From assembly GCA_048213135.1 (NCBI GenBank), contig PS015383.1, positions 76,167 to 111,463 on the forward strand: a stretch of DNA of 35,297 nt. The letters are read 5' to 3'. Both the position numbers and the translations under genes were made by a program. Below are positions 1,451-33,600 of the stretch, in pieces (the stretch's first letter is position 1; every line of letters begins with the position of its first letter). The notes under the pieces were generated by a model that had not been told where the DNA came from, ran no database searches, and saw only the letters and a program-made list of their open reading frames with translations. This stretch comes from Reclinomonas americana ATCC 50394. Taxonomy: Eukaryota.

Positions 1451-3508
1451 TTACAATTCAGTCGCCTTGATGTACTCCTGCATCATCTCGAAACACGCTT
1501 GTGGTTGATCAGCCGGAGCCTGCGACCACAATGTGGGGGAACGTTGGTTGATCATGACAAAGTGAGCTGGCGGAGTGGACGACGAACCATGTGACCGGCG
1601 TTGGCGACCACCACTTGTGTCATACCACCGGAGGTTGTGTACCAGCCGGCCGTGTTGTTGTTCACAATCCACACCTGTCGTGCGGCCGCCCGAAACGCCG
1701 CAGCTCCCGGCCACTCCAGCTTTTGCAGATAGCGATCGGTGCCCATTACTGGGAAAGAAAGAGAGGAGGTACGGTGAGTGGCGATGGTGTAGCGTGACAC
1801 GAGAGCATAATGACGCACAGTTGCAGATGAGATCCACCTGCGGTAAATCAGCGGTGAGTGGCGCGTTTAAGGCAGAGAGCATGAGGCGGAGCACGAAACA
1901 TTGCCGTTGTACACGAGCATGGGCATGACGGCGAGAATGTCGGGCCACAGTGGCAGTGAGGTTGGAGCATTGAGATCCGGAATCAACGCCGTCTCCACCT
2001 GCATGCACACCACGTGTGCTTGGTGCCGAGAAAAAAACAAAGTGCATGACAATGACCGACACACACCTGCGCGCCCTGAGCACCCCACGCTGGAGCACCG
2101 GGTGAAATGTGCAGTGCCTGCCGCACGTCACTCCGCGCGAGGTATTCGGCCACTCGTGGATCATCTGCTGCGTTGAATTGTCGAATGTCGTACTGCGTGG
2201 CGCGATTGTAAGTGAAGAGACTCGACGCACCAGCCGACCATCCTTCTTCGCAACTGGAGACACATTGCCACCGAGTGTGGTAATGGGATTCAACAGACCG
2301 TAGTAGCACGACGTGTTGAATGCGGTGACGTAATCGCCCTGCTCCAGCAGTTTCTTGCAGTTTTGCGCCTGCGCCGACAGGGCCACGAAATCCCTGCGCA
2401 ACGCAGTGCCTATGGTGAGATGGCGAAAGAAAAGCAGCTCCTCTACGCGATGCTTACGAACTGGGAACCAATCAGGCCATTGGCGTCTGTGCGCGAGAGA
2501 GTTAGTAGAGTAAGAGAGAACACAAGGCATGCGTCGACTGGGAGACGCACAAGCATAGTCCGGAAACGAAAGGTTCTGCTCGATGGGCTCCACCTGTGAC
2601 GGGAGTGCGGCGGTGAGTGACCAGTGGTGCTGATCGTGGCTCGGATGAATCCTCGCGCTTCGCTCTCACCCAGCCGTCACCAATGGCCACCCCGGCGACG
2701 TGCAGCGGATACGAGGGACCACGAACACGTCGCTGCTGCAACAGCTGCCACGCGATGTTGGGGGCCTGCAGGTTGTCGGCACGTGAGTATGACACACACG
2801 GTGATACGGGTTGAGCGAGCATGCACGCACCATGTGACCGGCAAACGACTCGCCCACAATGATCAGAGGCCGCTGCGCAAACCGCGGATGCTTCTCACAA
2901 AAAGAGAGCAGTGCGGCCTCGGCCGCACGGCGCAACTGCACCTCGTTCTGCACGTACCCACCGCCCGTGCCGTCGTGAACCGCCGAGAAACCAGTGCCAA
3001 AGGGCTGATCGAGGTACAAGACATCGGCCAGCGCCGTCCACGACCACGGTGCCTCCTCCAGCTGCGGAGTTGCACTAGTACTGCCGTCGACGCCACTGCG
3101 CTGCACACGGAACGGCCCATTCTCCGTGAACAAACCAAAGAGCGACGAGGCGCCCGGTCCACCCTGCAGCCACAGCAGCAGCGGCTTGGGCGACGATCGC
3201 GACTGCTGCTGCGACATGCTGTCCTCGATCAGCCAGTAAAAGAGCTGGCCGGGTACATTATCGGCCACAGTGGCATTGAGACTGTGTGGCGTAGGGGTCA
3301 TCAGTGACGGGGACGGGGGGAGTGAGCAGGAGCACGAGGCAATGATCCGCAACAATCCGGCGTGCATGACAAGTCGCGTTTGCAACGATGGTGGCAGGCC
3401 CGGCAGCGCTGTGATCAAGTCGGGCGATGCGGATTGGGAGGCTGTGGCATTGCACAGGGAGGCCGCCACGAGGAAGGCGAGGAGCGCGACAACTGTCGCT
3501 TGCGACAT
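1451..3508 (-). CDS. Secreted serine carboxypeptidase, peptidase family S10 (11 exons)
   Basis: Signal peptide MSQATVVALLAFLVAASLC. Family motifs HAGFLN, LFYW, PLLLWLQGGPGASS, FTENGP, YLDQPFGTGFS. Catalytic triad in GESFAG (Ser), NGNVDLIC (Asp) and NAGHMAPADQP (His). Ten GT-AG introns are all phase-compatible; stop TAA at 1451-1453. Confidence 0.95.
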
Positions 3509-3593
3509 GACGGAACGAATGAACGATGCGAGAACAGGACATTGCTGCGGTTGTCCTCTCACTTTGTGCCGACACATCATCGACAAACACGCA
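3509..3593. promoter_or_regulatory. Putative bidirectional promoter (85 bp between divergent ATGs)
   Basis: Carboxypeptidase ATG at 3508 (-) and PES1 ATG at 3594 (+). An imperfect dyad AGGACA-N10-TGTCCT lies in the middle. Confidence 0.6.
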
Positions 3594-6500
3594 ATGGCTG
3601 GCCGAAAGGGACGCTCCAAGGTACCTGCACTGGACATCACATACGCACACATGCAAGCCGTGCTGCATCTGCTGTTGTTGCATCGTCATGCATTGCATGT
3701 TGATCCCTCTCTTCCTCTTCTTCTCCCCTCTCCATCGCATCCCCCAATCCCCACTCCACTCTCTTCACTGCACGTATCACTCTTGTGCACGCTCGGTGTG
3801 CTCCCTTTTTTGTGTGTCTGTGGGTCGGTGATGTGCATCTGCACATGCACATGCACACACACTCACCCCCCTCGGCTCGCCCTGACAGGTCCGCGCGGCC
3901 GTGGACAAGAAGCGGAAGAAGAAGGGAAAGGTGTCGCCCAACTTTATGACACGCAACATGGCCATTCGCAAGCTGCAGATCACACTGCGCGACTTCCGCC
4001 GCCTCTGCATCATCAAGGGCGTGTATCCGCGTCAGCCGAAGAAGAAGCTCTCGGGGCGCGACAAGACCTACTACTACACCAAGGACATTATGTTCCTCAT
4101 GCACGAGCCGATTCTGCGCAAGCTGCGCGAGATCAAGGTCTCGATCATCGTCCAATCGTCTCTCTTTTCGTGCTCTGACCTTGCTGTTGCTGGCGACACA
4201 GGCACACAACAAGAAACTGACGCGCGCCGTCGGCCGCAGGGAGTACTCGACGGCCGACAATCTGCGTGCGCGCCGGCCAGTGTATCGCTTGGACCATGTG
4301 ATTCTGGAGCGGTACCCGAACTTCCAAGATGCACTGCGTGATCTCGACGACGCCCTCAATCTCGTGCACCTGTTCGCCGCACTGCCGCCCAACTCGAGCA
4401 TCAAGCAGCAGCGCATCACCAATTGCTCGCGCCTCGCCCGTGAGTTCCAGGCCTTTGTGCTGCAGACGGGCGCTCTGCGCAAGGTCTTTGTGTCCATCAA
4501 GGGCATTTACTACCGCGCCAAGGTCCTCGGCCAGGATATCACGTGGCTCGTACCGCATGCATTCACGCAACACGTACGTCGTGCGCCTCTGTCAGCAGAG
4601 AGGAGCGTGGCTCGTTGTTTTGTTGACTATGAGGCGGCGCTTGCAGGTGCCCTCGGACATCAACATGGAGGTCATGCTGACCTTCCTCGAGTTCTACGAG
4701 GTGCTCATGTGCTTTGTCAACTTCCGCTTGTACCAGTCCATCGGTCTGCGATACCCGCCGCCTCTGCCCGACGATGGTCTCCACGCACCCGGATACGTCA
4801 TTGATGCGGCGCTGAGTGCGGCGGCGGCCACAGCACCGAGCGAGGGAACTGTGTCGACGACCACCACCACCACCACCACCACCACCGCGACAGCATCTGC
4901 TGCTGCCGCTGTGTCGTCCGCTGCTGTCCGGGCTGCATCTGCGGCACGCTCCCGTACTCGGTTTGTTGGGCAGCCGTCGGTGGAGAGTTGACTGGTGGGT
5001 GGTGCTGACACTCACTCGTTCGTGATTGCGTGCAGCGTGGTCGACACGACGAGTGCCATGAAGACGCTGGCGGCGAAAATCTCGCAGATTCGCAAGAAGG
5101 ACTCGGGTGCTGTCGACGACGAGGATGACGTGGTGGAGATTGTCGCCTCGGCGCCAGCCTCGGACGACGAGGACAGCGACGACGACGATGAAGATGATGA
5201 TGATGAGGAGATGGAGGATGGTGACGAGGACGAGGAAGACGAGGATGGTGAGGCGCAGGAGGACGACGATGGTGAGTGCTGTTGGTCTCCGTCCAGTGCA
5301 CTGCATTCAGGTTCTCATGCTGTCCGCTGCAGTGGCGCTGTCGGAGGGCGAGATGGACGGTGAAGGGGAAGCGGAAGGCGAAGAGATGCAGCAGCCGGAT
5401 GAGCTCACCGAGGGTCTTGCCACCACCGCGGAAGAGCGCACGCAGCTGCGGGGCGATGCGCAAAAGGCGCCCCAGATCTTTGCCGGTCTCAAGTTCTTCT
5501 TGAGTCGCGAGGTTGGTGGTCGTCTGTGTTCGTGACACTTCTCTCCCCTTGTTTTTCCTCACTTGGTTGTCGGTGTTATTGCACAGACGCCGGTGGCCAC
5601 ACTCGATTTTGTGATTCGCTCCTTTGGCGGCGTTACGTCGTGGGCAGGCTGCACCATTCCTTCCGCATTTGTCGAGGGCGACTCGAGCATCACCCATGAG
5701 GTAAGATGCTGTCACTTGGCGCCCTTTGGTGACCCGTATAAGCTCACCGCGCGCGCTCTCAGGTGGTGGATCGCCCGCGACAGGCGCATCGCTTCCTGTC
5801 ACGCGAGTACGTGCAGCCGCAGGTGAGGACCAATCCGGGAGAAAGATTCCGTTCACGACAACCCTGACACGTGTTGTTGTCGTTTGTGTGCAGTGGGTGT
5901 TTGACTCGGTCAATGCCCGCATTCTGCTTCCGGTGGAGCCGTACATGCCGGGTCTCGCACCACCGCCACATTTGTCGCCGTTCGTGGACAACCGCCGCTT
6001 GGGGTGAATCTGCCTTCTCGTTGCTTGTGCAGTGGTTTTCTCCGACTCTTGGTCATGCTTACTCCCTCCCTCCCTCCCTCCCTCCTTTCCTTTCTGTTTC
6101 TGCAGATATATCCCGGAGCAGGCACTCAAAATTAAGCAGCTTATCGCCGAGAGTCGAGGCGAGCAGATTGCCAAGCTTGAAGCTGGTGCGCAACGGAGAA
6201 TTCTGGGGAAGCTCGCACACGAGGACACGGCTGGTGCACTGGAGGAGGAGGACGAGGAGGAGGAGCAGGAGCGCTACGTGCGCGAGCTGCAGGCGGAGGC
6301 CGCTGGTGTGTCGTACTCGGCCGCGCAGCACCGCAAGCAGAAGAAGGCTGGAAAAGGCATGCAGGTCGACGATGATGACGAGGAGGAGCATGGCGAAAAG
6401 GCTGCAGCGGACGGTGACGACGATGAGGAGGAGGAGATGGCGGTTGACCCAGGTGTGTGTGTGTGTGTGTCTGCGCGACAGTTCTCTATTTGGTGGGTCG

Positions 6501-8324: not shown

Positions 8325-10782
8325 ATGCTCAGGGGGCGCTTCCGCTGGACGCCTGAGCTCAACGAGGACTTTGAGGACGGCATCCGGGAGCTGGCGCGAT
8401 GTGGTATTCGTGCGTAGATCCTCGCCTCTGTTGTCCACGTGTGTGGAGGTGCGACGACACTCGCCAAACTGACACGCTTGCCATAATTTGCAGAGCTCGC
8501 ACCCAAGGCTCTTCGCCACGCAATGTTGCGCGTTCACCCTGAACTCGAACCACTCGGTCTCACCCTGGCGCACGTGAAGAGGTGAGTGGTGGGGGGCCAA
8601 GTGGGCGGACGAACAACAGATGGACACTTGGTGGCGTGTGCGCGTGTCTGTTGTTGTGTTTGTTCGCACTTATGTCACTGGTGCACGGTGCAGGAGAGTG
8701 CAAAGTGCTCTTTACATATCTGCTCACTATTGTGTCATTACGTGCAGTCACCTGCAAAAGTGGAGGATTGCGTGTCGCGAAGCCAAGCATTTCCGTCGTA
8801 TGCCCGGCTCCAGTCCTCCCGGAGTGACTCCTGGTCGCAGGCAGATGCGCGGACCGACGTCGCGCTCGCGCTTGCTAATGTCGGCACTGGCTCATTCGAC
8901 TGATGGCACCATTGTGCCGTCGAACACCGCCCCTCCGATGCAATCAATGCCGACAGGTGCCGCCGTGTCAGCGACGACCGTGCCTCCCACGGCAGGCGGT
9001 GGCGAGTGTGGCGACGAGTGCAAGCCTGCGCTGCACAAGTACCACAGCGGCGCCTCGACTGGTCCTGTTCAGCGGTATGGCGTTCACAACAGCAATGGCG
9101 GTATGCCGCTGTCTGCTGTCGAGTACGGTGCGTATGCGACGCCACTTGTTGCGAACATGGGAGGGTGCTCTGGGTGTGCGGCCGAACGGCAGCCGCACGA
9201 CGCTGCCGTCACCGGCACAGCGGCATCGGCGGCGACGGCGGCGGCCACTCCTTATCGCGGTCACGGCAGCCTTGGTGGCATGTCACTGACCTATGGCATC
9301 GAGGACGCCAACAGTGTCGGCGGCTCTGACGAGGACGAGGAGTATGGCGACGGTACCGGCGACGGCCGCAGCAGCGGCAGCAGTGCCCATGCCGTCACCA
9401 CCTCCACGCCGGCGCCGCACATGTCGCCGCGTCCGACACTCTCCATGCCCTATGGCTGCGGCGGATCGCCCGCCGCTCCAGGCTTTGGTGGCGACATGCA
9501 ACAGCCGCAGCAGCCACAGCAGCAACAGACGCAGTACCATGTTCAACAGCTTCCTCTTGCGTACCACCACCAGCAGCAGCAGCAGCAGCAGCAGCAAATG
9601 ACCATGTCCTGTGGTGGCAGCACGATGGCCATGCCTCCGCCTGTCATTCACCAGCCGCCGCGATTCCTCAACAGCGGGCCCTACGGTTTTTCGTCCATGC
9701 GACACATGTCTCCGCAGCAGCAGCAGCAGCAACAGCAGCAACAGCAGCCACCGCAGCCACCGCCGTACCGCCCTCAGTACCCGACGCGCCGCCCGAAGCA
9801 TCGCTCACTCGGCAACGGAAGCGACATGTACCCACGCTCGTCGCACACAGCGGCCACCGCCTACACGACGTCGATGCCTGTGCATCCGTTTTCGCACCAC
9901 CACAGCTTTGTCGGCGTGCCAGCCATGTATCCTCCAGCGTACGTCTTTCAGCAGCAGCAGCAGCAGCAGCAGCATCAGCAGCAACAACAACAGCAACAGA
10001 TGCACCAACAGATGGTTCAGACGGGATTTCAGCAGCTGCACCTTGGCCAGCCGCAGCAGTCGTCGCAGGTGCAGCAGGAGGATGGCGACGAGTCGCTGTC
10101 GTCACAGCAGGCATCGTTGCCGCCGCCGCCGCCGCCGCACCAGCAGCAGCAACAGCACCAGCAGCCGTGCACTTCGGCGATGCAGCTTTTGCCCGCACCT
10201 CTGCCGCCATTCTGCGGTCCCGAGGCCACCGCGTCCGCTGCCGGGTCGTTGATGAACGACTTGGAGGCAGCGGCGTCGACGGTACACGCGACAGCCACGT
10301 CGGTGGCCGAACTGATCGAGATGGACATGGAGGAGGCGGCCTCCACAACGGTTTGTGTCGATGTGCGTGTGTGACGAAGCAGATGAAGGCGATGCTGACG
10401 TTGTTTTGGCTTGTCTGTGCAGGGACTCACCTCCAGTCTCGACGATTTCACCTTCTTTGACGATTTGCACGTGTCGATGGATAGCTGCGCCGTGTCGCCG
10501 GCGCACGACTTGGCTTTAGCCTCCACATTCTCGACTCCGTTCGGAACGATGCATTCGGGTATCAGTCGCTGCGGTGGCGGCAGTGGCACCGGCACCGGTA
10601 CAGGCAGCAACATGAGTCTGTTTGGTGCGCCTCGCCCCACGACTCCATGCAGTGGTGGACCATGTGCCGACCTGTTCGGCACAGTCCACGGGCACGCCAC
10701 CAGTGGCAGCCACAACAACGGCAACAGCGGCACTGGTGGTGGGGTGATGTGGGGGGTGGCTGACTTGCAGGCGTCGACGTGA
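8325..10782 (+). CDS. GARP/G2-like (SHAQKYF-class) Myb transcription factor, paralogue 1, with Q/P-rich disordered C-terminus
   Basis: Exons 8325-8409, 8494-8581, 8748-10350 and 10423-10782 give RGRFRWTPELNEDFEDGIRELARCGIQLAPKALRHAMLRVHPELEPLGLTLAHVKSHLQKWR. This matches the GARP pattern RLRWTPELH..F..A...LG....TPK.....GLT..HVKSHLQKYR. Start codon uncertain because an acceptor AG lies at 8322-8323. Confidence 0.88.
9571..10000 (+). repeat. Coding (CAG/CAA)n polyglutamine tracts in GARP gene 1
   Basis: CAG-rich runs near 9571-9597, 9715-9747 and 9949-9999, in frame as poly-Q. Confidence 0.9.
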
Positions 10783-13598: not shown

Positions 13599-16500
13599 AT
13601 GCCTGGTGACGACGATCTTCTGCTGACGGAGCTGCCTCGTCGGTGAGTGTTGCGATGTTCACGAAAGAAAAGAATGATCCTCTTTTCCTCCACTGTCTCT
13701 TGGCTCTTGAGCACGACGCCCCGTTATGGCGCGTCTTTTCGTGTGGGACTTCTTGATTAGAGTGCGCCTTTTGGCGCCACAGACCGCATTTCGTACAATT
13801 TCCTTTTCTTTGTCGAGTGTCAGAGAGGAGACAACTTCCTCTCGTACTCCTTCACCGCACCTGACCGTTGGCCATGATTTCGACACACAGAGGCCGTCTG
13901 AAGTGGACGCAGGAGCTCACCGACATCTTCGAGCAAGGCATCGCCAACCTGGCGTACGCAAAAATCCGTGAGTTGTTGCAGTGACGACGTGCGTGTACAT
14001 GTGTGAAAACACTGCTAACGACTTCTTGCTGCCAACAGCGCTGGCGCCCAAGGCTCTCCGCCGCGCCATGATTGATATCGAGCCAGAGCTGGAGGTTGAA
14101 GGACTTTCACTGGCGCACGTAAAAAGGCGAGTGGTGCGTGTTCGCGCGCGTACACACACACACACCCCGTAATATTATTGTGTCCGCATGTTCGTCTGCT
14201 CTTTTGCCAATCACTCTCTCGCTGCCACTTTTCTGCACTTCTTCTTTTGCTGTCGTGCTGAGTTTCTCTTTGATACTGCGATGAGTGAGCCAGAGAGTGT
14301 GACGCTCGTAAGAGAAACCCGTTACACGGGTGTTTCTGTGATTCGCTGCGTGCTTTTTTGCAATCCCGTTTTGCCGACTGCTGCAATAACATTAACGGAC
14401 AACTCATGTTGCACCGCACCTACTATTGCTGTATCTGCTGCTCCTAGTGGCACACTGTTGTGGGTACGGATCTGTTGTGCTGCTGCGGCGCTGTGCGCTG
14501 TCGCCTCGACGGCTACTGTCTTCTCCTTTTTTGTCTGACTACACTGTTCTTTCACTCGCCGTGCGTCTTTCGTGGATGTACACGTGAGTGTGCATTGCTG
14601 GATGTGCACACGCTCTTTCGCCATGTGCCTCCTCCTGCGGTCGCCTTTCTCTAGCACGATTCTCGTCTGCACTCCGCACCTTTTCTACCCGCACGCATCC
14701 AATATTATCACGGACACTATGTGCGAGAGTATGTGCAGCGAATTATTGTTGTAGTTGCCTCATTGCCGACATACACAATCGGGTCCTCTTTCTCTCTTTC
14801 CCTTTCGCAATCTATCACCCCGCTGCTGCCACCGCACAAGACACGAAGACTCACTTTTGTGCGCACATGTGTGTGAACAGTCACTTGCAGAAGTGGCGCG
14901 TGGCCCGCCGCGCCGAGGAGGCGCAGTTGCGCCGCGCAGCTATGAGCGCGGCGCGCAAGGCCGGTGGTTCAGTGCTGCACGACAACAGCAGCGCAGTGCA
15001 CGCATTGGCTGGAGCAACCGCTTGCCGATTCACCGGCGCCGTCACCTCCACCACCGCCGGCAGTTCGGCTGCCGATAGTGACGATGAAGATGGCGTCGCC
15101 GGTTTTGCGCCTTTCGGAATTCCCGGCGGCATTGACGGCGCTGAGCCGTGCAAGTGGGACTGGAATCAGCACAAGCCGGCGGTGCTGCTGGCACCCACCC
15201 GCCAGTCGGATACGGCGTGGGAGTTCCGTGTCGACACCGACATGTGCGCTTTCGATGCCGCCTCGTACTCGTTTGCGTCCATGGCACAGGCGGTTCCCGC
15301 CGCTGCCGCCCTTCGCCTCACTATGCCGCCGCGCCCGATGCAGCCGGTACCGACCGTGGGTACCTGGACGGTGCCTGCCTCGGCTCCAGTGCCGCCACCA
15401 CAGCCGTCGAGTGGACACGTGCATGCCTCCACTCTCCATCCGTCTCCGATCGGTCAGTCATCGTTCCACACGATACGCTCGGTGCCAGCGCATGCGTACA
15501 ACAGCAGCAGCAGCGCGGGCTGGATGTCGGACTCTTCGATACAGAGTCGCGTCACTGCCAGTTCGCTGATTCACATTAGCGATGTGGCGCCGACCACTGA
15601 CGACGACGGCGACGACTCGGACCGCAGCCGTGTGCGCCGTTTCATCATCTCGTCGGCACTCGATCCGCTGCCACTCTCGCCGTCACGCAGTCGTGCACCG
15701 CTGGCGTCGGCCACCTCTGTCTCCGCCGCTGCTCGCCTCAATGCCGCCATGGCGGACGAGTACGAAGCCGACGACGATGGCGACGGATCGGCACCATCGT
15801 GTCGCATCGCCTTCCCGTCGTCGACTGTGGGCGCCGCGCGACAGACACAGCCAACTGTGCCTCCGCGCCGACCACAACCACACCAGGCCCTCGGCGGATT
15901 CGTGCAACCGCTGTCGTCGCCCAGTCGCGCTGCATTTCGCCACATTCACGGTCGTCGCACCGAGTCAACCACCACCGGCGCGTGCGCACCACTGACTGCG
16001 CAGGATGGCGGCAATGCCGTCACCCCTTCTCCTTCTTCTGCGCCGTTGCCGCCGCTGCCGACGCCAGTGATCTTCGGATCGGGGTCGTTTCCCGTTCATG
16101 CCGCCACCACTGCCGCGTACCCACACTCCGGCCTCCCAGTCCAGTCGCAGCAGCAGCAGCAACTCCCACAACAAGACCAACAGCAGCAGCAGCAGCCGGT
16201 AGCTCCGTCTGAGCTGCAGCAGCTGGCCGAGTCGGTCGACATCCACCAACCACTGGATGGCGAGCGCCATCTGCCGTCGGCCTTTGATCCGACCGAGTCG
16301 TGGGGCTCGGAGATCGACGACGACGAGGAGACACTGACGACGCCATCGACCACTGGCCGTCACACCACCCTGGACTCACATTTTCACCCGGTGGTGAGTT
16401 CTTCCATCATCATTCTGGCGCGAGTCTCCGCACACTGTCACTCACCCTCCCCCCCTTTCCCCGCACAGAGTCCACCCCACGTAGACCATGTCGGAGGGCT

Positions 16501-16714
16501 GGCCATGGACTGGCCGCCGTGCACCTTTGCCGACGACTTCATGTGCGGCTCGTCGGTGATGACGGGAGGTGCACCCTTGTCGTACTTTGGGCCGGCCCCG
16601 CAGCGCCTAAGCGTGCCACACGCACTGCACGACGCCAGCTGCTTCCTCAAGGCCAACGTTGCCCGCCACACGGGCTCCATGCTCCTCGACGATGCGATGC
16701 ACGGTCACTCGTGA
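13599..16714 (+). CDS. GARP/G2-like Myb transcription factor, paralogue 2
   Basis: Exons 13599-13642, 13891-13967, 14039-14126, 14881-16393 and 16469-16714 give PRRGRLKWTQELTDIFEQGIANLAYAKIPLAPKALRRAMIDIEPELEVEGLSLAHVKSHLQKWR. It shares both intra-domain intron positions with paralogue 1. The third intron is GC-AG (14127-14880). Further upstream exons are possible (acceptor at 13585). Confidence 0.85.
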
Positions 16715-17471: not shown

Positions 17472-17491
17472 NNNNNNNNNNNNNNNNNNNN
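17472..17491. other. Assembly gap (20 N)
   Basis: Run of N; true size unknown, so the flanks may not be adjacent. Confidence 0.99.
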
Positions 17492-18128: not shown

Positions 18129-21100
18129 CTACGACGGCGGCGCGTAGGTCGAGACGCCAGTTGCCGGATTGTAGTAGTAGACGCGTCCTTGCGCGTCGTA
18201 GTAGGCTTGCCAGGCGGTCGCTGCACTCGAAAGAGTGAGGATGCGGGAAAAAAGAATGAGAAGAGGAGCGTGCTAGGTGACGCAACGTTGTGGCGCTGCC
18301 GGCTGCGGGGCATAGGTCGGGTACGCATACTGGGAAGCGGGAGGCGCATACTGGGAAACGGGAGGCGCGTACGGAGCATACTGCTGTTGCTGAGGTGGAG
18401 CATACTGCTGTTGCTGCGGCGGGGCGTATTGTTGTTGCTGAGGTGGAGCATATTGCTGTTGCGGCGGAGCATATTGCTGCTGCTGCTGCTGCTGTTGTTG
18501 TTGTGCGTACGCCGCAGCGGTGACGGCGGTGGCAGACTGGGTGTAGGCGCTCGCGTAGCCGGACGGTGGCATGTACGCTTGACCGGCGGGCAACGTGTAG
18601 GGCGACGCTGACGCCGGCAGTGTCGTGGCGACGGGCGCCGCGGCTGGGGGCAGCGTGGCGGCGGAGGCGGTGGTGGCGGGCGCGGCAGCGACAACCACTG
18701 GAGCAGCTGGATTGTAGGCGGGCGGCGGTGGAGCGGACACTACTGGAGCGGCTGGATTGTAGGCTGGTGCCGGAGCAGCAGCCGGGAGTGTGGCGGCAGT
18801 GGCTGCAGGGAAGGCGGTTAGTGAGGGAAGACCGATGAATGACACACACATGCACTGGAGAAAGCACAAAAACGCACCAGTGACTGGCTGGCCCGCCGCT
18901 AATGTGGAAATGTACGGCGAAATGTACGAGTTGCCGAGAGAGGCTGGTGTGACAAAACGCATCGGCGTCAAGCCGCTGCTCGGGTCGGTCGATGCGGCCG
19001 CCGGCGCGGGGGAAGGCTGCCGCGGGGCGACCGTGGCTGTCGGCGACGACGATCGAGAACCCGGTGCGGCCAGGAAGCTGCCGCCAGTGGCCGGAGCCGG
19101 AGCCCACATGGCATACGATCCGGAGCCTGCAGTGGAGCTGGAACCGGAGCCAGAGCCGGACCGAGGGGCGGCCGGTGCAGCAGGCCCGCCGGCGGTCGCC
19201 GTCGGGGCGACCATGGGAACGGCAGCGGCAACAGGAGTGGCCCACATGGAAGCTGGCGCGGCGGAGGCCGCCGTGGTGGTCGTAGTCGTCGTCGTCATTG
19301 GTGGCGGCATCATCGCCTGCACGGGCGCACTGACGACCACCGGAGCACTTTCGTTGAACATTGGCGGCGGCGGCGGCGGCGCAGCAACGGCGACCGGAAG
19401 ACCAGTGGCAGTGGCCACAGGGGCGGCGACCGGCGTGCTGCACGTACCGTCAGACTCGTGCTGGTGGACGGGAAGAGTGAGAGAGGCGACACACCTGGCA
19501 GCTCGCTGCGACGGCGCTTGCACCAGAATCGGCGTGTTCGCCGGTGAGTGGGTGGGCGGTGGTGGCAACCAGTCGCGTGGTGCCTCCGGGGCAGCCTGCA
19601 TGCATACAAGGTGAGTATGAGGCCCAATCGAAGCGAGTGCGCTACAAGAACGAGAGACACACACCGAAGCTACCGACGACTGCGAATCGGTGGCCATGGT
19701 TCTCGTTGGCTCCGCGCCTCCAGCAACAGACACTGCGACGGCAGATGGTGAGTGTGGGGGCGGAGCAGTGCAGACGCGCAGTCTCATACGGAACTTTGTG
19801 CAAATGCCGCAGTCGCAGGTGCAATGCCTGCGCGACACCGTCAGAAGAATAAGAAGGACGAGTCATCTCTGCATAAAATACCACGCAACTCTCGGGTGCC
19901 TGGACGACGCGCATCGGGGTCGGTGCTGCCGGCGCCACAGCGGCCTCGATGTAGTCCATATACTGCAGCCGAGGAGCGAATACGTCCGACGGTTTGATGT
20001 GCTGTGCGACGCGCATCGTGAGACAATGGCACACCGCCAGCACATTAGTGCAATCAAGTGCGTCACCGTGGTACAAATCGGATGCGTGACGAAAATCTGC
20101 ACTCACACAGAAGGAGTGAGTGAGTGACGTGAGGACAGAGAGAAAGAATGCGAGAAACACAGGTCGCAGCAAGCGCAACTGGGAGCTCCATATGCACTTT
20201 CCGCTTCTTCTTGTTGCGCTTTTCGACTTCCACGTCGGCAAACACAAAGTAGGCAATGCGCACGAGGACGCCGCGGATACACGGCGGCGTCTGTGCCGGA
20301 ATCTCCAGCGACATGACCAGTGCGTCGGCATCAAAGTTGCCACTGGTGAGAACCGTGGTCTCGTCCGTGGTCTTGCCGTGCGCACGAAGCGTCTTGGTGC
20401 GCACCAGCGTTGCTGCCACATTCAACAGCACTGCACGCAACAAGCCACAGGTGAGGGCGCTGTGCCCGAGACAAGGAGCGTGAAAGGCAAGCAGAACGCA
20501 ACTGGCATCCGTCGACACGGTAAACGACACCACATCGCCAGCAAACTGCACCTGCCGCTCCGCTTGCAGCCTACGGAGTGTGAGTCGAACGCACCCAGCG
20601 ACAACGACAGAGGAGCATAACGCAACGACACCGAGTACGTCTTCTTGGTGACGGTCTTCACCACCGGCTGGAAAAACGCCTCGTCCTCCGACAACAAACA
20701 CTTTTGCAGCACAAACAGCGCCGCCCCGTCCTCAAACGCATCCGGCTGGCTCGCCGCACTGGCCACCGCAAAGTACGCCGAGGCCTGTGCCCACACTTTG
20801 CATCAACAACTCGTCCTCTTGCACGCAGACGACTGGCGTGCAAGGTAACCTGTCGCTTGGCGGCCACACATCGCACTCGGATCTCATATTGAATGTAGCC
20901 GGCCGAGTACGTGACCGTCGACACGGCATCGTCTTGCAAGTAGCATGAGAATGGCAGCTTGTACACTCCCGGTGCCATGACACAGCAACCAGTCGCCGCA
21001 TCGCGACCTGCAAGTGAGTGAGAAATCAGAGAAGGAACAATTGCAACACTGGTGCAGACTGAAGACTGAGAATGCGGAACTTTGCACCATGTGATCGGGA

Positions 21101-23193: not shown

Positions 23194-23247
<54 letters not shown>

Positions 23248-26200
23248 NNNNNNNNNNNNNNNNNNNNNNNNNNNNNNNNNNNNNNNNNNNNNNNNNNNNN
23301 NNNNNNNNNNNNNNNNNNNNNNNNNNNNNNNNNNNNNNNNNNNNNNNNNNNNNNNNNNNNNNNNNNNNNNNNNNNNNNNNNNNNNNNNNNNNNNNNNNNN
23401 NNNNNNNNNNNNNNNNNNNNNNNNNNNNNNNNNNNNNNNNNNNNNNNNNNNNNNNNNNNNNNNNNNNNNNNNNNNNNNNNNNNNNNNNNNNNNNNNNNNN
23501 NNNNNNNNNNNNNNNNNNNNNNNNNNNNNNNNNNNNNNNNNNNNNNNNNNNNNNNNNNNNNNNNNNNNNNNNNNNNNNNNNNNNNNNNNNNNNNNNNNNN
23601 NNNNNNNNNNNNNNNNNNNNNNNNNNNNNNNNNNNNNNNNNNNNNNNNNNNNNNNNNNNNNNNNNNNNNNNNNNNNNNNNNNNNNNNNNNNNNNNNNNNN
23701 NNNNNNNNNNNNNNNNNNNNNNNNNNNNNNNNNNNNNNNNNNNNNNNNNNNNNNNNNNNNNNNNNNNNNNNNNNNNNNNNNNNNNNNNNNNNNNNNNNNN
23801 NNNNNNNNNNNNNNNNNNNNNNNNNNNNNNNNNNNNNNNNNNNNNNNNNNNNNNNNNNNNNNNNNNNNNNNNNNNNNNNNNNNNNNNNNGTCGACGGTCG
23901 GAATATTGAGGTCGGGCATCTCCTCGAGATCGCCATGCGCCGCCACGGCTGCTGCTGACAGTGGCGCACCGGACTCACTCTTGCGGTCACTGGGCGAACG
24001 AGCCGCCGAACCGACGCCACCGTCGCGCGGCGAGTGTGGTCGAGTGTGCGTGCGCGAGCCGGGAGCCGAGAGTGTGGTTGGGGCCAGGCGCGGTGCATCG
24101 AGATACGCAGACCCATTGGCCAAGTCGGCGCGCGTCAGCTGTGCCACGAATTAGCAAACACGAGCACACGTCATCGACACGAGAAAGACTCGTACCTTGC
24201 GCAGATATGAAGTACGCTGCTGCGGACGTGCCACGAGTTCACCGGGTGGACTGTCTGATGTCGGTGCCACGGCGACTGGGACACCGGCCGGGCTTGACAC
24301 GTAAAGTGACTGCGGATGAGTGAAGTGAGTGAGTGAACCATCGAGTACCAAGTGTGGGCGCAACGAGGGAGTGAGCGTACCAGGAGATTGCGCGACTCGT
24401 TGAGGCGGACATCACGTTCCGGACTGGAGCTGTGCTGACTGCCGGTGGCGACGGCGGTGGGTGGCGAGGAGCGGCGATTGCGCAGTGTGCGTTGCGCAGC
24501 CTCCATCATGGGATCGCGTGGGGATGTGGGCGCCGAGGTTGCCGACTTGGTGCCGGCGCCGACAGTCAGATAGGTCGGCGAACGGGGTGCACTTCGCGCC
24601 GCTGGCGATCCAGCAGGTGGCGGCACCGGCACCAACGGTGCTGCTGCTGTCGCGGCTGCTGTTGTCGCCGACACGCGGAGCTGAGGAGACTTGGCAAGTG
24701 GCTCGAGAATGGAACTCATGGCCTGCGCTGCGCCACGCGGCGACGACGGCGCAGTGATGGAGGGCCGGCGTGCGTGCAAAGGCGACGCAGAATCGAGGCG
24801 GAAGCGCACCGACGGGCTCACGCGATGCGGAGGTTGCGGTGGTGAGCCAGCTGCCACTGGCGACAGGTGATCGCCCGTCGCACTGCTCCGCAGGCGATTT
24901 TGTGCTGCGGCCGACAGCGACGATGACGGAAGTGGTTCAAGTCGCGGTGTGCCTGGTCGAGGCTGCGGCAGCGCGACCGGTGAAACATGGCTGTCATCGG
25001 AGAGGAGGTTGGTGAGCGTGCTGAGGCGGGGAAAGAGCAGAGGGTGCTGGCAAACGCAACATGGTTGTTGGCGACGATGCCGTCACATCAACCGAGAGCG
25101 GCGGGAGGCGACGGGGAGTCGGCGGTCGCACCGGAGGCAACACAGTGGTTGTTGCCGTTGTGGCTATTGTCGGTTGTGGTGGTGGTGGCGAGCCAGACGA
25201 CAATTCTGTGACACACTCACTCAGCAATGGGCGCGCACTGAGATGGACGCGCCGGCACGTGCGAGACTCACCCTTGGCTTTCTGAACGGCCGACACCATT
25301 TTCTGCACGAGACTGGAGGGTCGGTTGCGGCCGGGTGATGGCGGTTGGCTCATCGAGCTGCTTCGTCTGGCCACGCGTTTCTGCAGCTGCTGCTGCAGTT
25401 GCTCAATGCCCTACACACACAGTTTTGTTGAGAAGAACACGCGTTCACCCCTTCGTCGGTCACACTCTCTCACCTCACGAGTGTCGAGCATCGCCATCAC
25501 AGCAGAACGCGCAATGCCACTGGCGGTGGGCGCCGCCACCGACGACACCTTGTCGCGATCTGGAGTCTCCGGAAGTCGCAACTGCGGCACCTGCACGGGT
25601 GAGTTCGGCAATTGCGCCAACGGGGCCGCCAGATTCAGGTGCCCGATGATCACAGTCGAGAACAGCTCGCCGAGCGAACCCCTGCGTGCATTCACAACAG
25701 GGAGTGAGACGCACGACGGGGGAACGCCGAGTTACAACCCCTGGCCACCACGAAACTTGCCACCAAAGAGGACCAGCTGCGGCAGCGGGCCGACGGTGAT
25801 CACACAGGCGTGCTTGGAGCGCGGAGTAATGGCGTCAGAATCACGACGAGTCCACGGCTCTGCCGCAGGTGGCGCATCCCGATTCGCTGCCGCCATGGCG
25901 TGGTCCTCCAGGGCGTCTACCACAAGCGGAAGAACACGCAGTGAGCTCACGACTCGCAGTGCATTCGAAGAGCGCATGCAACGCACCGGCATTGGCCACC
26001 CAGCAGTCGCCGAGAGCATCTTGCCGATGATTGATGCCTCCAATGACGACAAGGATGCGGCCGAAAGACGACAGAGTCATGAACGAGCGCGGGCAAATCT
26101 GCTCCTGCACTCCCAAAAACGTCCACACGTTGGTGGTGGTGTCGTACACAAACAGCTCGTTGCTGTACTTGCTCTGCTGGTCACAAAAGCCGCCAAAGAG

Positions 26201-27328
26201 GAACAGGCCTGAGCGGTGCAGCACCAGGGTCAGAATAACGCACCGATGAGTACGCCTGTCAGTGCGAGGACGACGCAACGAGTGCCGACCGCAGTCATGG
26301 CATGACCGCACCGTGGCGATGGCACCTGTCCCTTCGGTTGCAACAGCGTGTACTCGTGGTCGCGCAAGTCAAACGAGCACATGCTATCGGTGGCGCGCAC
26401 GGAACCATCAAACACTTGCTGATTGCCTCCGAACACATACACAGTGGTGCCAACACGCGCACAGGCGGCCTCGTAGCGACCACGGAAAGTCGGGGGCATG
26501 CGCACGCGCTCAAAGTGCCCCGAGCCGTCACCCTTGTGCTTGTACCACTTGCGTTGCAGGCGCAAGCAGTACACATTGTGCAGACTGCAACACAGTCAGC
26601 TACCGACGCGAACACACGGCTGCGTTGTGACAGAGCGCAACATGTTCCCCGACGCGTCGAGTCCAGAGAAGAGATACACGTGGGCGCCAGAGGAGAACGC
26701 CAAGTGGTCGGTGCGACACAGCGGGTTTGCCACACCACCCGAACCCATCATGAGCGATGCCAGTGCCGGCGACGAGTTGAGCGCCACCGCCGCTATACAC
26801 AATACAAGAAAGAGTCAGCACTCTGCATATGGTGTCGCACTCCTTTGTAACGCTCACCGGCACTCGGGGCCTCCCAGGTGGTTGGCGGACGCGCCCATTC
26901 TCCCGATCCCGGCAGCTGAATGACACCAAAGCCTCCGTCGAGTGCCGCCGACGACTTGGACTGTCGACTCCATCCTCCGCACACCAACACACCACTCTCC
27001 GTGGCAGTCACTGTGGCGACGAGTGAGACAGAGTGTGATGTGTTTGACTGCATCAATGTGTTCGCAACTCGTGTGACCGACGCGTCCACTCAGCGACTAC
27101 ACACACACACACACACAGTGAGTGTTCTGTGGAGACGGAGAGCACAGTGTGTGTGAGGGAGAGGCGCACCTCATTGTATGGCACAAAAGGAGCAGCGATA
27201 ATGGAAGTGGTGACTGCTGAAGGCGACGAGGCCGACGCGTGAGACTCGCGCGGTGGTGACGGAGGCCTCTTTTGCTCTGCCGCAGTGTGCGACTCCTCCA
27301 CAGAGAGCACCTCAAATGTCAAGTCCAT
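22904..27328 (-). CDS. Kelch-repeat (beta-propeller) protein with long Ser/Pro/Arg-rich C-terminus; spans an assembly gap
   Basis: ATG at 27328. Kelch repeats after splicing: GRVGHTMTATESGVLVCGG, RTDHLAFSSGAHVYLFSG, RYEAACARVGTTVYVFGG, PSPRCGHAMTAVGTRLFLFGG...ELFVYDTTTNVW, PRSFMTLSSFGRILVVIGG, PRSKHACV...LVLFGGKG. The terminal exon ending at 22904 is assigned across the gap and is less certain. Confidence 0.85.
23197..23246. repeat. (GA)n microsatellite at gap edge
   Basis: Perfect GA run immediately before the N block; intronic in the kelch gene model. Confidence 0.95.
23248..23889. other. Assembly gap
   Basis: Run of N inside the kelch gene. Confidence 0.99.
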
Positions 27329-27434: not shown

Positions 27435-30235
27435 TCATGTCGCGTCGTCGCCGGCACCGGCGAGAGCACGGGCGCGAGCTTCCCACATGGGTACTTCGTC
27501 GTCGCGACCGGCACGGCGGAGCACCAGCACGAGATTGCTGTAGGCCAGTGCGAAACCGGGCCACAAGCGGATGGCTTCCATGTAGTCTGCAGCGAGAAGG
27601 TCATTTTCTGAGATTTGTACCGAGACGCGCCTTGCCATGTACTTACCATTGATGGCTTCTGTGAACTGGTTGAGGGCGGTATATGCATTCTGTGCAAAAA
27701 GGCAAAATGCGTTAAGAATCTCAATGTCAGCAAAAAAATCGCGATTGCCAAGAGCACGCACTCCGCCTGTGAAATAACACAACAACAAACGGTGAGGGAA
27801 TCGCCGGTGCATCAGAAACAAGCGAAGAAACGAGCGAAGGGAAAAACGGCCGCCCCCCAAGAGGACGCACGATTCTGCAGGGAGAATCGCAGGTCAGCAA
27901 ACAACGTTCCGCACCGGGCCGTAGCATCTGTATTCATATATTCCACCCGACTCCGCGACGCAACATTCAGCGCTGTCCAGTTGTTCGCGTCCAACGCCAG
28001 TGCTCTTGTGCAGTCGTCTCTGTTATTTTGCACACAACATGCGATTCGCACGTCAGCGGACATGCACACGCAAAAGACAGGGGGACGTTGTCGTGCTGAC
28101 CTCGCTCCCATGAAGTCTCGCATGCAGTACAACGAATCGCCGTGCGCCACCCACGCCATGGAGCACTCGGGGTCCAACCACAATGCGTGCTCCGAGTCCC
28201 GCAACCCTGCGGCAACGACGGCGGTGTCAGGATGTGCAGAACAACAAACATGCAGTTGAATGGAGGTCACCGTCGTCGATGCGTCGACACCGATTGTGAC
28301 TTCTCGCTCGCCCGCACCACGCCAGCACAAGCCGTGGATCCAGTTCAATGGCCTCGTCTGTTGTTGCCGGAGAACATCATCATCATGAGGAGGAGAATGG
28401 CAGACAGGCAAAAGGTGAATGAAACAAGGCGACGCAACCGTACAGACGGGTGGCTTCCGCGAAATTACGATCGCGATACATGGTGTCGGCATCGCGCAAC
28501 TTGCGCAGTGCTCGCGATCGCCGAGCACTCGCTGCATGCGTCTCCAATGTCAACATCCACCAGCAAACAAGGGAGGTCAGTGCTGCAGATCCCTTTGCGA
28601 ACCTCTAGAAAACACTTGTGCACCACGGGCAAGCACCGTCGACATTGGTAATGCCAGCGCCATGTTGGCGACCCGTCCCGAAATGTCGGCCTTGATCAGC
28701 TCGTCTTGAATCGCCGCGTCCGCTGTGACCGACGAAGTCCCAATGTGTGTGATGAGCTGTGTAATGCACGAGCACATCCGACGGACGCACCTTCAGAGAC
28801 CGCCAGCAGCACCTGCAACATCTCTTCGACCCAGTCGATGCGAGGGATGCTGGCCGCCGACTCCAACCAACTCAGCGTCAACGGCACCATGCACAGGTAC
28901 CGGAAGGCACCGCTATTGCCGCGATGATCTGCGACAGCATGGAGAGGGGTTGGTGTGAGTGTGAAGCAGACACTTACTCGAAACTCTAGCACCAACGCAC
29001 CGGTCACCGCATTGCGGAGCGTCCGCAGCAGTGCGAGCGAGAGCATGTCCTCGCCCGTCCGTGACACTTCGCTCACCGCCAACGGCAACATGGCTTCACC
29101 CAACAACGAGAAGCGGTGGCACAAGCAGCGGAGCAGAACACGCAGACCCTCACAGTCGTGAAACGCATCCTGATTCCGTACACAACCTGCACAGACCAGT
29201 GAGCGATTTCAGTCCCTGCACAACTCTCTCGTTCACCTCCCGCAGACGAACCGGCCATGGCGTTCCCGATGCAGCCGAGCAGACATGAGGCAAGGAATGT
29301 CGGCGTTGACTCGCTGACCGCGCGAATCAGCAGCGACATGCCGTCGCAGTCGGCCAGCTCATGCTTGCTTTCGGAGCATTCTGTTTTCCGCACGCGTCAT
29401 CAGCGTCTTCACCACACACACCACACGCAAAGCGACACGCACCACACAAGAGAGCCCAGAGCGCAGCAGCCGCACGCTCACGGATCACAAGCGGCACCGA
29501 CGACGGCGGCGCAATCTGCATCAACAGAAGACTCGCGGCTCCCTGCTGCGCGGCCAGTCGTCGCTGCGCCGGGTTCACTGTACGCGCACAGAGAACAGAT
29601 CAGCTGTAAGCAACATGGCGGTCCACACACGTGCACACACACATACCATGTAACAGATCCGATAGCGTCGCCAGCGCCTCGACCAGCACCGACTCATCGA
29701 CACAGACACCACGCAACACACCCAACAACTGCGACAAGACCACCACCTGCTGCTGCCCGACAACCACCACATCCACCGTCGGCGTGGTGCTGACCGCCCG
29801 CTCATCCACCGCAACCACATTCCTCCGCGACACTTCTTCCACGGCGACCACCACCACCTCCTCCACTTCCTCTACATCATCATCTTCTTCGACCTCTGCC
29901 AATTCCCGCTTGGCGCACCACGGCGCACCACTCGGAGCGATCTTTGATCGCGTTATCAGTGGTGGCGGCGGTGGTGGTGAAGATGAGAGAGGAGAAGGCA
30001 GTGGAGGCTGCGCGCGTGCTCTCCGAACGCGTTGCGCTGGTGGTCGACGCGGTGCGATCGGCGAGTATGAATGCAGCGGACCGGCCACGGAAGACGAGGA
30101 CGAGGACGACGAGGAGGAGGAGGATCGCGATGCTGGCGCGTCGCGATTCGCTGTGTACGTGAGAGAGTGAGAGAGAGTGCTAGTGTAAGTGACTTAAAGC
30201 GAGCGCGCTTTCGGCGATGAGAATGACGCACCCAT
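27435..30235 (-). CDS. Armadillo-like repeat + C-terminal TPR repeat protein (~15 exons, including 4-nt and 5-nt microexons)
   Basis: ATG at 30235 (4-nt first coding exon, in-frame stop upstream). ARM-like helices: RERAAAALWALL, CLLGCIGNAMAGCVRNQDAFHDCEGLRVLL, ALLRTLRNAV. TPRs: ADTMYRDRNFAEATRLYDEAIELDP, AWCGRARSH...DSEHALWLDP, AWVAHGDSLY...DCTRALALDA, ALNNRGNAYTALNQFTEAINDYMEAIRLWP, ALAYSNL. TGA at 27435-27437. Confidence 0.85.
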
Positions 30236-30630: not shown

Positions 30631-33600
30631 ATGAACACTCCGTCGCGTGTGCTCGCGCGCCGCGTGCGGGAGAGCGGTGCCACCAGCACGCAACGACAAC
30701 AACAACAACAACAACAGGCGCGACTGGAGAGTGTGAGTGGCCGCGGCGGTCTGCTCATCAATGCCGCCACTCTGGCCGCCCTCGCACCTCCATCCGCGTC
30801 TGCGCCCAAGTCGGGTGGGTACCCGGTGGTGCCGGAGGCGCAGANNNNNNNNNNNNNNNNNNNNNNNNNNNNNNNNNNNNNNNNNNNNNNNNNNNNNNNN
30901 NNNNNNNNNNNNNNNNNNNNNNNNNNNNNNNNNNNNNNNNNNNNNNNNNNNNNNNNNNNNNNNNNNNNNNNNNNNNNNNNNNNNNNNNNNNNNNNNNNNN
31001 NNNNNNNNNNNNNNNNNNNNNNNNNNNNNNNNNNNNNNNNNNNNNNNNNNNNNNNNNNNNNNNNNNNNNNNNNNNNNNNNNNNNNNNNNNNNNNNNNNNN
31101 NNNNNNNNNNNNNNNNNNNNNNNNNNNNNNNNNNNNNNNNNNNNNNNNNNNNNNNNNNNNNNNNNNNNNNNNNNNNNNNNNNNNNNNNNNNNNNNNNNNN
31201 NNNNNNNNNNNNNNNNNNNNNNNNNNNNNNNNNNNNNNNGTCGTCGGTGCTCGCACCAAGCATGGTGTCTGTGGAAAAGTACCCGGGTGTGGTTCGCTTG
31301 CATCACAACGACTATCCGGCCCTGCTGGACCCCGACCTCGACGCTCTCGAGGCGCGCAAGCAGCGGCGAGGGACGATTGACCTCGCCACAGCTTCCATGT
31401 TTCGTCTGCCCGGATCCGCAGCTCCAACTCCCAAGCCGCAGGCTGGACTGTCATCTATTCACGAGGCGCGATCGGATGCCGATGAACTCAGCAGGTTCCG
31501 TTGCATCCGCACCGTGCGCACAAGAGCCATCATCGTGCACTCATTATGTCTTGCGTGTGAGCAGTGCTCTGCTGGGCAACCCGTCGCTCGGACGCGTCCA
31601 CGACGTGCCGCGACCGCGCGTGGAACTGACGCAGGCTGAACGCATGTTGTCGCAATTGAATGCCAAGCATGGCATTGTGGATAGCGCGCCGCCGGTTGCA
31701 GTGGCGTCGGCGATACCCGTGCGTCCGGTGCCATCGTGGACACTGCCGAACGAGGTGTTGCGCGCGGCGGCCCAGAAGCAGAATGGAGATCCGACGCACT
31801 GGGGCGACCAGGTGGTAAGCCCCGACGCCAGTGAGTTGGCGATGCTCACTGGCCTGGTGGAGGTGTGTGTGTATGATGACAGCGATTGCTGTGTGTCGTG
31901 GGTGTGCGCGAACTCATGTGTCTCCCCCAATGTGTGTCTCTCACCACAGCCCTCCAATCGTCTGGGTTCTCCGGCCTTGGCGCCAATCGACGCCCTGCAA
32001 CGCGACTCATCGCCTCTGGGAGTGGTGCAGCCGTACGCTGCGGAGGAGGGGCTCGGTGCTGATGCCTCGTTTGATGACATGGTGGCGAACCTGCTGCGGC
32101 GGCAGGGTGGTGATGAGGAGGGAGAGGCGGGCGGAGAAATGCTGGACACTGGCCAGATGCCGCCAGAGATGCTCATGCAACAACTGCAGGAGCTGCAAGA
32201 GCAGCTCGGCATTGGTGCCGACGAACTTGCACATGTCCTCGATGCTCATGCGCAAGGTGCCGAATTCGTGCGTCCTTTGCATCAAGAGTTGCCTGAGGAA
32301 GGGCTGGCGGCGGAGGGAAGTGGCCTCGGTCTCCCCACGGCACCGTCAGAAGGTGTTGCAGAGTTGATGGCTTCGGCTGTGACGGCGGAAACAACTGCGG
32401 CGGTGAACTCGCCGACACCTCCTCCGCCACTTGTCGCCTCGCCACACCCGGTGAGTCCTGCTTGAATTCAGAGAGAGAGGGGTGTTGTCATCGGCATTCT
32501 CACACATGGAAATGTGTACAGCCTCCCCCCGAAATCGACCTGGCGGCGTTTGGTATGACCATTCCCGACATCAAGTTGCCGCCGCTGCCGGTGGAGGAGG
32601 TGCCAGTGGTGGCGGTGGCGGAGCAGCAGTCACACGTGAATGAGCCGTCGTCCTCGCGTGCCGCGGACGCGTCTGCGTTGGCGGTCGTGCCGCAGACACC
32701 AGTAACAGTGGTGACCACTGTTGCGTGTGATTGTGGTGTTCCGTAGCAGATGCGCTTGGATTCTTTCACCAACATTTCTGCACTGGAACGCAGGTGACGG
32801 CCACTCTCTCACCAGAGCAACTGGAGGAGATGGAATCGCAGCGCCGGAGATTGGACGAAGAAGAACGGCTGCTGGAGGAGCAGCGCAGATTACAGCAGGA
32901 GATGTTGGTGCATCAGGCAGAGCAGGATCGCCTGCAGGCCGAGCAGGCCAAGATGCAGGAGGAGATGGATCGTTGCGTGTGTGTGTCGCGCATGGGAGTT
33001 GTTTTCCGTGTGCACTCGTATCCTCACGTCTCCCAACCACTCGCCAGAGCGCATGCGTGAGTTGCAGGAGCAACTGAGGCAGCAGAACGATGTGTACGCA
33101 CAAAGCCTGCTGAAATACGGAGAGGACATGGACGAGAAACTGCGCGCGCAGCAACAGAGTCAACTCGCGAAACAGGAAGTGCGTTGTTGCAACGACTTTG
33201 AAGCTTACCTCCTCTCATGTTATTAATATGTGTGTCGGCAACCAGGAAGAACTGCGGAGACTGGAGGCAGAATTTAAGTACCAGCAGCAGCAGCTGGTCG
33301 AGCAAGAGGTCAGTGAGCGTCACCGGTGGCACAAAGTTTGCTGCGATCGCGGCGTTTGATGATGGTGGCTCATTGTGGGCGATTGCAGCTGAAAGTGGAG
33401 CTGGAGAAGCAACTTGCTGCGCAGCGGCAGGGCATGCAAGAGGAGCTGTTGTCGCTGATGGAACAGCAGCGAGCCGAATTAGCGCGTTCACAGGCCGAGG
33501 CCGACAAGGCCATGCAGGAGGAGCAAGTGAAGATCATGTCGGAGAACTTGCGCGTGCAGCTGGAAGAGGAGCGCCGGTGTGTATTGATTTGCGGATTAGC

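Follow-up and report, generated by a model that had tools for sequence, protein, structure and literature searches.

We describe a candidate pair of adjacent microexons of 4 and 5 nucleotides (nt), AATC and GCGGA, in a gene for a tetratricopeptide repeat (TPR) protein of Reclinomonas americana ATCC 50394. The gene lies on the minus strand of a 35,297-nt stretch of DNA, here called the window (assembly GCA_048213135.1, contig PS015383.1, positions 76,167 to 111,463 of the forward strand), and all positions below are counted from the first letter of the window. Judging by the sequence, we consider it highly probable that the mature mRNA carries 9 nt from within the disputed region 27964-27690 as two consecutive microexons. 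The 275 nt of this region would then comprise three ordinary short spliceosomal introns, termed A, B and C (90, 104 and 72 nt), parted by constitutive coding microexons that, once spliced in, would place Asn-Arg-Gly in the fourth TPR (TPR4) of a roughly 500-residue protein.

This arrangement had been proposed in an earlier sequence-only reading of the window. On re-reading the sequence, the coordinates it had given for the exon ends, both microexons and the three introns were all exact; the introns have the GT...CAG ends and the branch-like motif (CTGAC or CTGAT) ascribed to each of them, and the TPR obtained by joining the pieces was borne out once a further 60-nt intron (27646-27587) was also removed. 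The microexons stand in the contexts CAG/AATC/GTGCGT and CAG/GCGGA/GTGCGT, and acceptor, donor, workable introns and branch-like motifs are all present. The frame arithmetic was likewise right, as skipping both microexons loses 9 nt in frame. Inclusion of one microexon alone causes a frameshift, with either termination once 33 residues of the test segment have been read or an altered C terminus, so that both must be included together; the frame also stays open if intron A or intron C is retained. Minor (U12-type) introns are defined by a highly conserved [AG]TATCCTT donor and a TCCTTAAC branch sequence. None of introns A, B and C, with donors GTTGCG, GTGCGT and GTGCGT, fits these features.

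To place the junction in its gene, we used a 14-exon minus-strand model, assembled by eye and running from about 29899 to 27435. The model is a single open frame of 501 codons with 13 introns, all of them GT...CAG, and ends in a TGA stop codon at 27437-27435. Its C-terminal 174 residues form a TPR array, with four TPRs at the end of the protein. Counted on the translation, the position-32 spacing of successive TPRs is 34, 34 and 34 residues when the 9 nt are included, and the last spacing drops to 31 when they are left out. Asn-Arg-Gly takes up positions 6-8 in helix A of TPR4, where Arg7-Gly8 matches the residues at the same positions of the preceding two repeats (Arg-Ala and His-Gly). Pfam searches of this array, made with single exons or read-through pieces only, gave weak fragment hits below the cut-offs, the best being 18.6 bits for TPR_11 (against 26.8) and 15.5 bits for TPR_17 (against 24.4).

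Inclusion and skipping of the 9 nt were then compared against other TPR proteins. The yardstick consisted of four proteins, P0059, P0060, P0061 and P0062, fetched with only the exons downstream of the junction and thus blind to the junction itself; P0059 is named a TPR repeat protein by a source and carries many precomputed Pfam TPR families. The C-terminal 174 model residues, with or without the 9 nt, were aligned to these proteins by phmmer (E-values at a nominal database size of 1000). With P0059 and P0061 as targets, inclusion scored 135.3 and 47.5 bits and skipping 92.7 and 42.3 bits, and the two models were equal within 1 bit against P0062 (37.3 for inclusion and 38.0 for skipping) and P0060 (28.5 and 27.7). 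The inclusion model gave alignments of 134-136 residues to two unrelated TPR arrays, ungapped at the junction. In all five spanning alignments, the skipping model required a gap of 3 residues precisely at the junction, and the target residues facing this gap were mostly n-r-g or n-r-a. Alignments to P0059 and P0061 also back the junctions of exons 7-14.

An alternative is that 27964-27690 is a single 275-nt intron joining 27965 to 27689, that its internal signals and the Asn-Arg-Gly reading are coincidental, and that TPR4 is three residues short. In its favour, loss of the 9 nt leaves the frame intact, the good scores given above were reached by the skipping model with P0059 and P0061, and with P0062 that model scores slightly higher than inclusion. 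This alternative nevertheless has to accommodate the recurrent 3-residue gap at the junction and the fall of the 34-residue period to 31, and the chance estimates and intron lengths described below also speak against it; we consider it very unlikely.

The number of ways in which the 275 nt could be spliced is limited. Ten candidate exons of at most 30 nt with the form AG/exon/GT occur within them, AATC among these, and if every intron must measure 40 nt or more, 16 GT-AG paths lead through the region, seven of which are in frame and free of stops. The path encoding Asn-Arg-Gly scores best of the seven (247.4), followed by a path with a single 9-nt exon (226.5); full skipping reaches 201.3 and the four others score lower. 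The second-best path would use the exon GCGGAGTGC (27766-27758, encoding Ala-Glu-Cys), with introns of 198 nt upstream and 68 nt downstream. It too restores the 34-residue length of the repeat, but Ala-Glu-Cys is unfit for repeat positions 6-8, the path lies 21 bits under the one encoding Asn-Arg-Gly, and a 198-nt intron falls outside the 60-81-nt range seen in other introns of the window. A single 9-nt exon is, in our view, scarcely credible.

For the two-microexon path, the role of chance was estimated by shuffling the 275 nt 20000 times with dinucleotides preserved. At least one AG/GT path that adds 9 nt was found in 5705/20000 shuffles and a two-exon path in 1696/20000. Paths encoding x-[Arg/Leu]-[Gly/Ala] arose in 193/20000, those encoding x-Arg-Gly in 39/20000 and Asn-Arg-Gly itself in 1/20000, and in 14/20000 shuffles a path combined CAG acceptors with GTGCGT donors. 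At rates as low as these, the match cannot be put down to selective searching in the sequence-only reading, and the rarity of the x-Arg-Gly and Asn-Arg-Gly paths argues against a coincidence inside one long intron.

Intron lengths point in the same direction. All 15 comparison introns, ten from the TPR gene outside the disputed region and five from a pescadillo gene, are 60-81 nt long and end in CAG. One intron of 275 nt would have 3.4 times the length of the longest of them, and sub-introns of 90, 104 and 72 nt are nearer the window norm. The pescadillo (NOP7) gene, at about 3886-6004 on the plus strand, has at least five introns (64, 73, 75, 62 and 71 nt, all CAG-ending), the five used here having been placed by alignment to homologues; its nearest relatives in 5.8 billion proteins are only 46-65% identical over the first exon, and none is close.

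Several observations weigh against the two-microexon reading. Introns A and B exceed all 15 comparison introns in length. On splice-site matrices, which were derived from only 16 sites and are too noisy to decide, the donor after GCGGA scores -0.3 bits, a value reached by 47% of GT sites in the window; the chief reason is the A at its position -1, where 14/16 training donors have G. The donor after AATC, with C at -1, and the acceptor before AATC both score 5.0, as high as 6% of the GT sites and 9% of the AG sites of the window, respectively. The skipping product, with its register shifted, keeps W, L and Y at TPR-like positions, and a 31-residue repeat is not absurd. The upstream part of the model was made by eye and its start codon was not located, and no orthologue of the gene was found by the protein-library and metagenome searches described below. 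As for the remaining sites, the acceptor before GCGGA (intron B, 27767) scores 8.2 and ranks in the top 1.8% of window AG sites, and GTGCGT is the commonest donor hexamer (3/15 other donors). Altogether, the matrices lend moderate support to the acceptors and the first donor and none to the second donor.

The same scores enter into the alternatives. The strong acceptor at 27767 would also serve the single 9-nt exon, but the donor of that exon, at 27757, scores -6.1; the weak donor after GCGGA counts in favour of one long intron. The weak exonic context of both donors, with C and A at -1, could also make inclusion conditional. Both microexons would then be real and alternatively included together, yielding substantial amounts of two proteins, one with a complete TPR4 of 34 residues and one that lacks three of them. 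A total of 9 nt suits such a scheme, in that joint skipping stays in frame and single inclusion causes a frameshift. However, nothing speaks for regulation, and a TPR missing positions 6-8 of helix A is expected, from what is known of TPR structure, to pack poorly. We regard a regulated pair as unlikely and favour constitutive inclusion of both microexons.

Searches for relatives of the gene gave little. Compared with Pfam exon by exon, the N-terminal 320 residues matched no family, and an early impression of armadillo-like repeats was accordingly dropped. A word search of 5.8 billion proteins (longer class) with exon 4 returned no match. Exons 4-5, with the intron between them read through in frame, gave four weak matches (E 3e-7 to 5e-4) in an exhaustive HMMER search of 1.84 billion representatives; the two examined, P0001 and P0003, are repeat proteins, and the matches were taken as spurious. 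With the two last exons, the longer protein class yielded four generic TPR proteins (E at least 0.39), none significant as a homologue. A metagenome scan with the last exon found one locus, 45% identical, which is alike only over a generic TPR stretch and otherwise unrelated to the gene, and was set aside.

The locus might conceivably be decayed or mis-assembled, that is, a pseudogene or an assembly artefact with no functional reading. Neither the start codon nor the 5′ end of the gene was found, no N-terminal homologue was accepted from the 1.84 billion representatives searched with exons 4-5, and the window contains three runs of N. Decay, on the other hand, would not preserve a 501-codon frame open across 13 GT...CAG introns, and the N runs (17472-17491, 23248-23889 and 30845-31239) all lie outside the gene. 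We attach next to no weight to this explanation. All three N runs are assembly gaps; some 950 nt separate the last of them from the first modelled exon, which lies downstream of it in the gene, and the 5′ end of the TPR gene may be concealed there.

Table 1. Exons of the TPR gene model and introns around the predicted microexons
Feature	Positions	Strand	Length	Description
Nine upstream exons	29899?-29647, 29577-29443, 29380-29252, 29186-29001, 28928-28791, 28722-28603, 28531-28439, 28357-28271, 28206-28101	-		One open frame; GT...CAG introns of 60-81 nt
Exon 10	27965..28019	-	55 nt	End of TPR3 and first five residues of TPR4 (...DANNWTALN); CAG acceptor 5′, GTTGCG donor 3′; in frame with the model
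Intron A	27875..27964	-	90 nt	GTTGCGTCGC...CTGCAG; donor GTTGCG; A of CTGAC 19 nt from 3′ end
Microexon 1 (predicted), AATC	27871..27874	-	4 nt	Asn codon and base 1 of Arg codon
Intron B	27767..27870	-	104 nt	GTGCGTCCTCTTGG...TTTCACAG; GTGCGT...CACAG; A of CTGAT 45 nt from 3′ end
Microexon 2 (predicted), GCGGA	27762..27766	-	5 nt	Bases 2-3 of Arg codon and Gly codon
Intron C	27690..27761	-	72 nt	GTGCGTGCTCTTGG...TTGCACAG; GTGCGT...CACAG; A of CTGAC 37 nt from 3′ end
Exon 13	27647..27689	-	43 nt	NAYTALNQFTEAIN; starts NAYTAL; remainder of TPR4 helix A plus part of helix B
Intron after exon 13	27587..27646	-	60 nt	GTAAGT...CTGCAG
Last exon	27435..27586	-		End of TPR4, partial fifth repeat, TGA stop

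The exon-intron structure of the model has two further features. Of its 13 introns, eight come after a phase-1 exon, and seven successive internal exons (135, 129, 186, 138, 120, 93 and 87 nt) have lengths divisible by three, a regular pattern reminiscent of exon shuffling.

Introns A, B and C also resemble one another. Introns B and C differ at a single base within their first 14 nt. Near the branch motif, introns A and C can be aligned over 23 columns with 20 matches (a T-rich CTGAC...GATTCT), and intron A opens with the same 10 nt (GTTGCGTCGC) as the minus-strand intron at 28438-28358. Among 153 intron pairs, those formed by A, B and C hold ranks 2, 3 and 11; the trio is tied fourth among 816 triples, and its similarity score was reached in 0/1000 shuffles. 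Direct repeats within the gene, when scanned for, amounted to no more than short signal-like matches. The three introns might be paralogues, one resident intron having been copied locally twice, 4 and 5 nt away, so as to create both microexons; on the sequence likeness we hold this idea to be doubtful. Were it true, such local copying would be intron gain by short-range intron duplication caught in the act, and it would explain the presence of three introns within 9 nt. Shared constraints on splice signals, or an extended signal preference, could also explain the similarity, which is short and overlaps splicing signals.

The predicted arrangement suggests how the region may be spliced. For short introns, it is accepted that splice sites are recognised across the intron. 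With introns of 60-80 nt in this genome, each intron would be recognised across itself (intron definition), and the length of the exons would matter little. An exon of 4-5 nt would be too small to hold acceptor and donor complexes simultaneously, which makes it likely that the three introns are taken out in succession, and each removal would lengthen the exon beside the next splice site in a manner akin to recursive splicing.

The window as a whole, which is eukaryotic DNA, has a G+C content of about 58%, and no Rfam family was found in it. Long open frames at 8578-10374 (+), 14588-16714 (+) and 18273-19862 (-) are rich in polyglutamine and QQQQYAPP-type repeats. Intergenic (AC)n and (AG)n microsatellites are common, as at 1-100 and near 23200. 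Judged by eye, an open frame at about 2666-3685 (-) is serine carboxypeptidase-like (GGPGASS motif), and one at 25841-26595 (-) resembles a kelch-repeat protein.

Tiny coding microexons are already established, and the predicted pair of 4 and 5 nt is an extreme case of them. In the open-access literature we found no description of an adjacent exon pair in which both members are 5 nt or shorter. If confirmed in transcripts, the pair would be among the most extreme microexon arrangements that we found described, with 9 nt in total and each exon alone frame-shifting. A 4-nt exon that cannot seat both complexes would, if real, offer a clean natural substrate for ordered, intron-defined splicing. 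The case also has a practical side: a gene predictor would report one intron of 275 nt and a protein lacking three residues, and omissions of this kind can be detected cheaply from the periodicity of repeats (34 residues in this case). The significance is limited, as this is a single locus and the general phenomenon is already established.

Recursive (ratchet-point) splicing is known from long introns of Drosophila and vertebrates, in which an acceptor is followed almost directly by a donor. There, as would probably hold for the predicted pair, the adjacency of acceptor and donor forces stepwise removal; recursive splicing, however, leaves 0 nt in the mRNA and takes place in very long introns, whereas 4 and 5 coding nt would be kept here between short introns. 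Among described microexons, a close counterpart is found in the plant Peptidase M1 gene, in which adjacent microexons of 5 nt and 12 nt are reported (rice Os08t0562700, Arabidopsis AT1G63770 and Zygnema Zci_04270; PMC8831610, PMC11096116). Both cases, the present one as predicted, have consecutive coding microexons between ordinary introns, restore a conserved protein motif and escape annotation. The plant pair was verified by RT-PCR (reverse-transcription PCR) or RNA-seq (RNA sequencing), whereas the present one is predicted from sequence; here, moreover, both exons are at most 5 nt (4 and 5, 9 nt together), the organism is a non-plant eukaryote and the introns of the genome measure 60-80 nt. 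Microexons of 1 nt are described in plant APC11 and VPS55 (PMC8831610). These too are constitutive coding microexons of less than 5 nt with canonical splice sites, the omission of which gives a wrong protein, but they are single and conserved across land plants, whereas here a pair is predicted. In human genes, three consecutive microexons of 3, 18 and 22 bp are reported for RPS24 and a constitutive 4-bp microexon for MPC1 (PMC12207440, PMC9929638). The consecutive arrangement of the former and the constitutive 4-nt exon of the latter, not a multiple of three, both recur in the predicted pair. Those exons belong to a vertebrate setting of long introns and exon definition, and the RPS24 microexons are alternative, whereas the microexons predicted here would be constitutive and flanked by introns of 72-104 nt.

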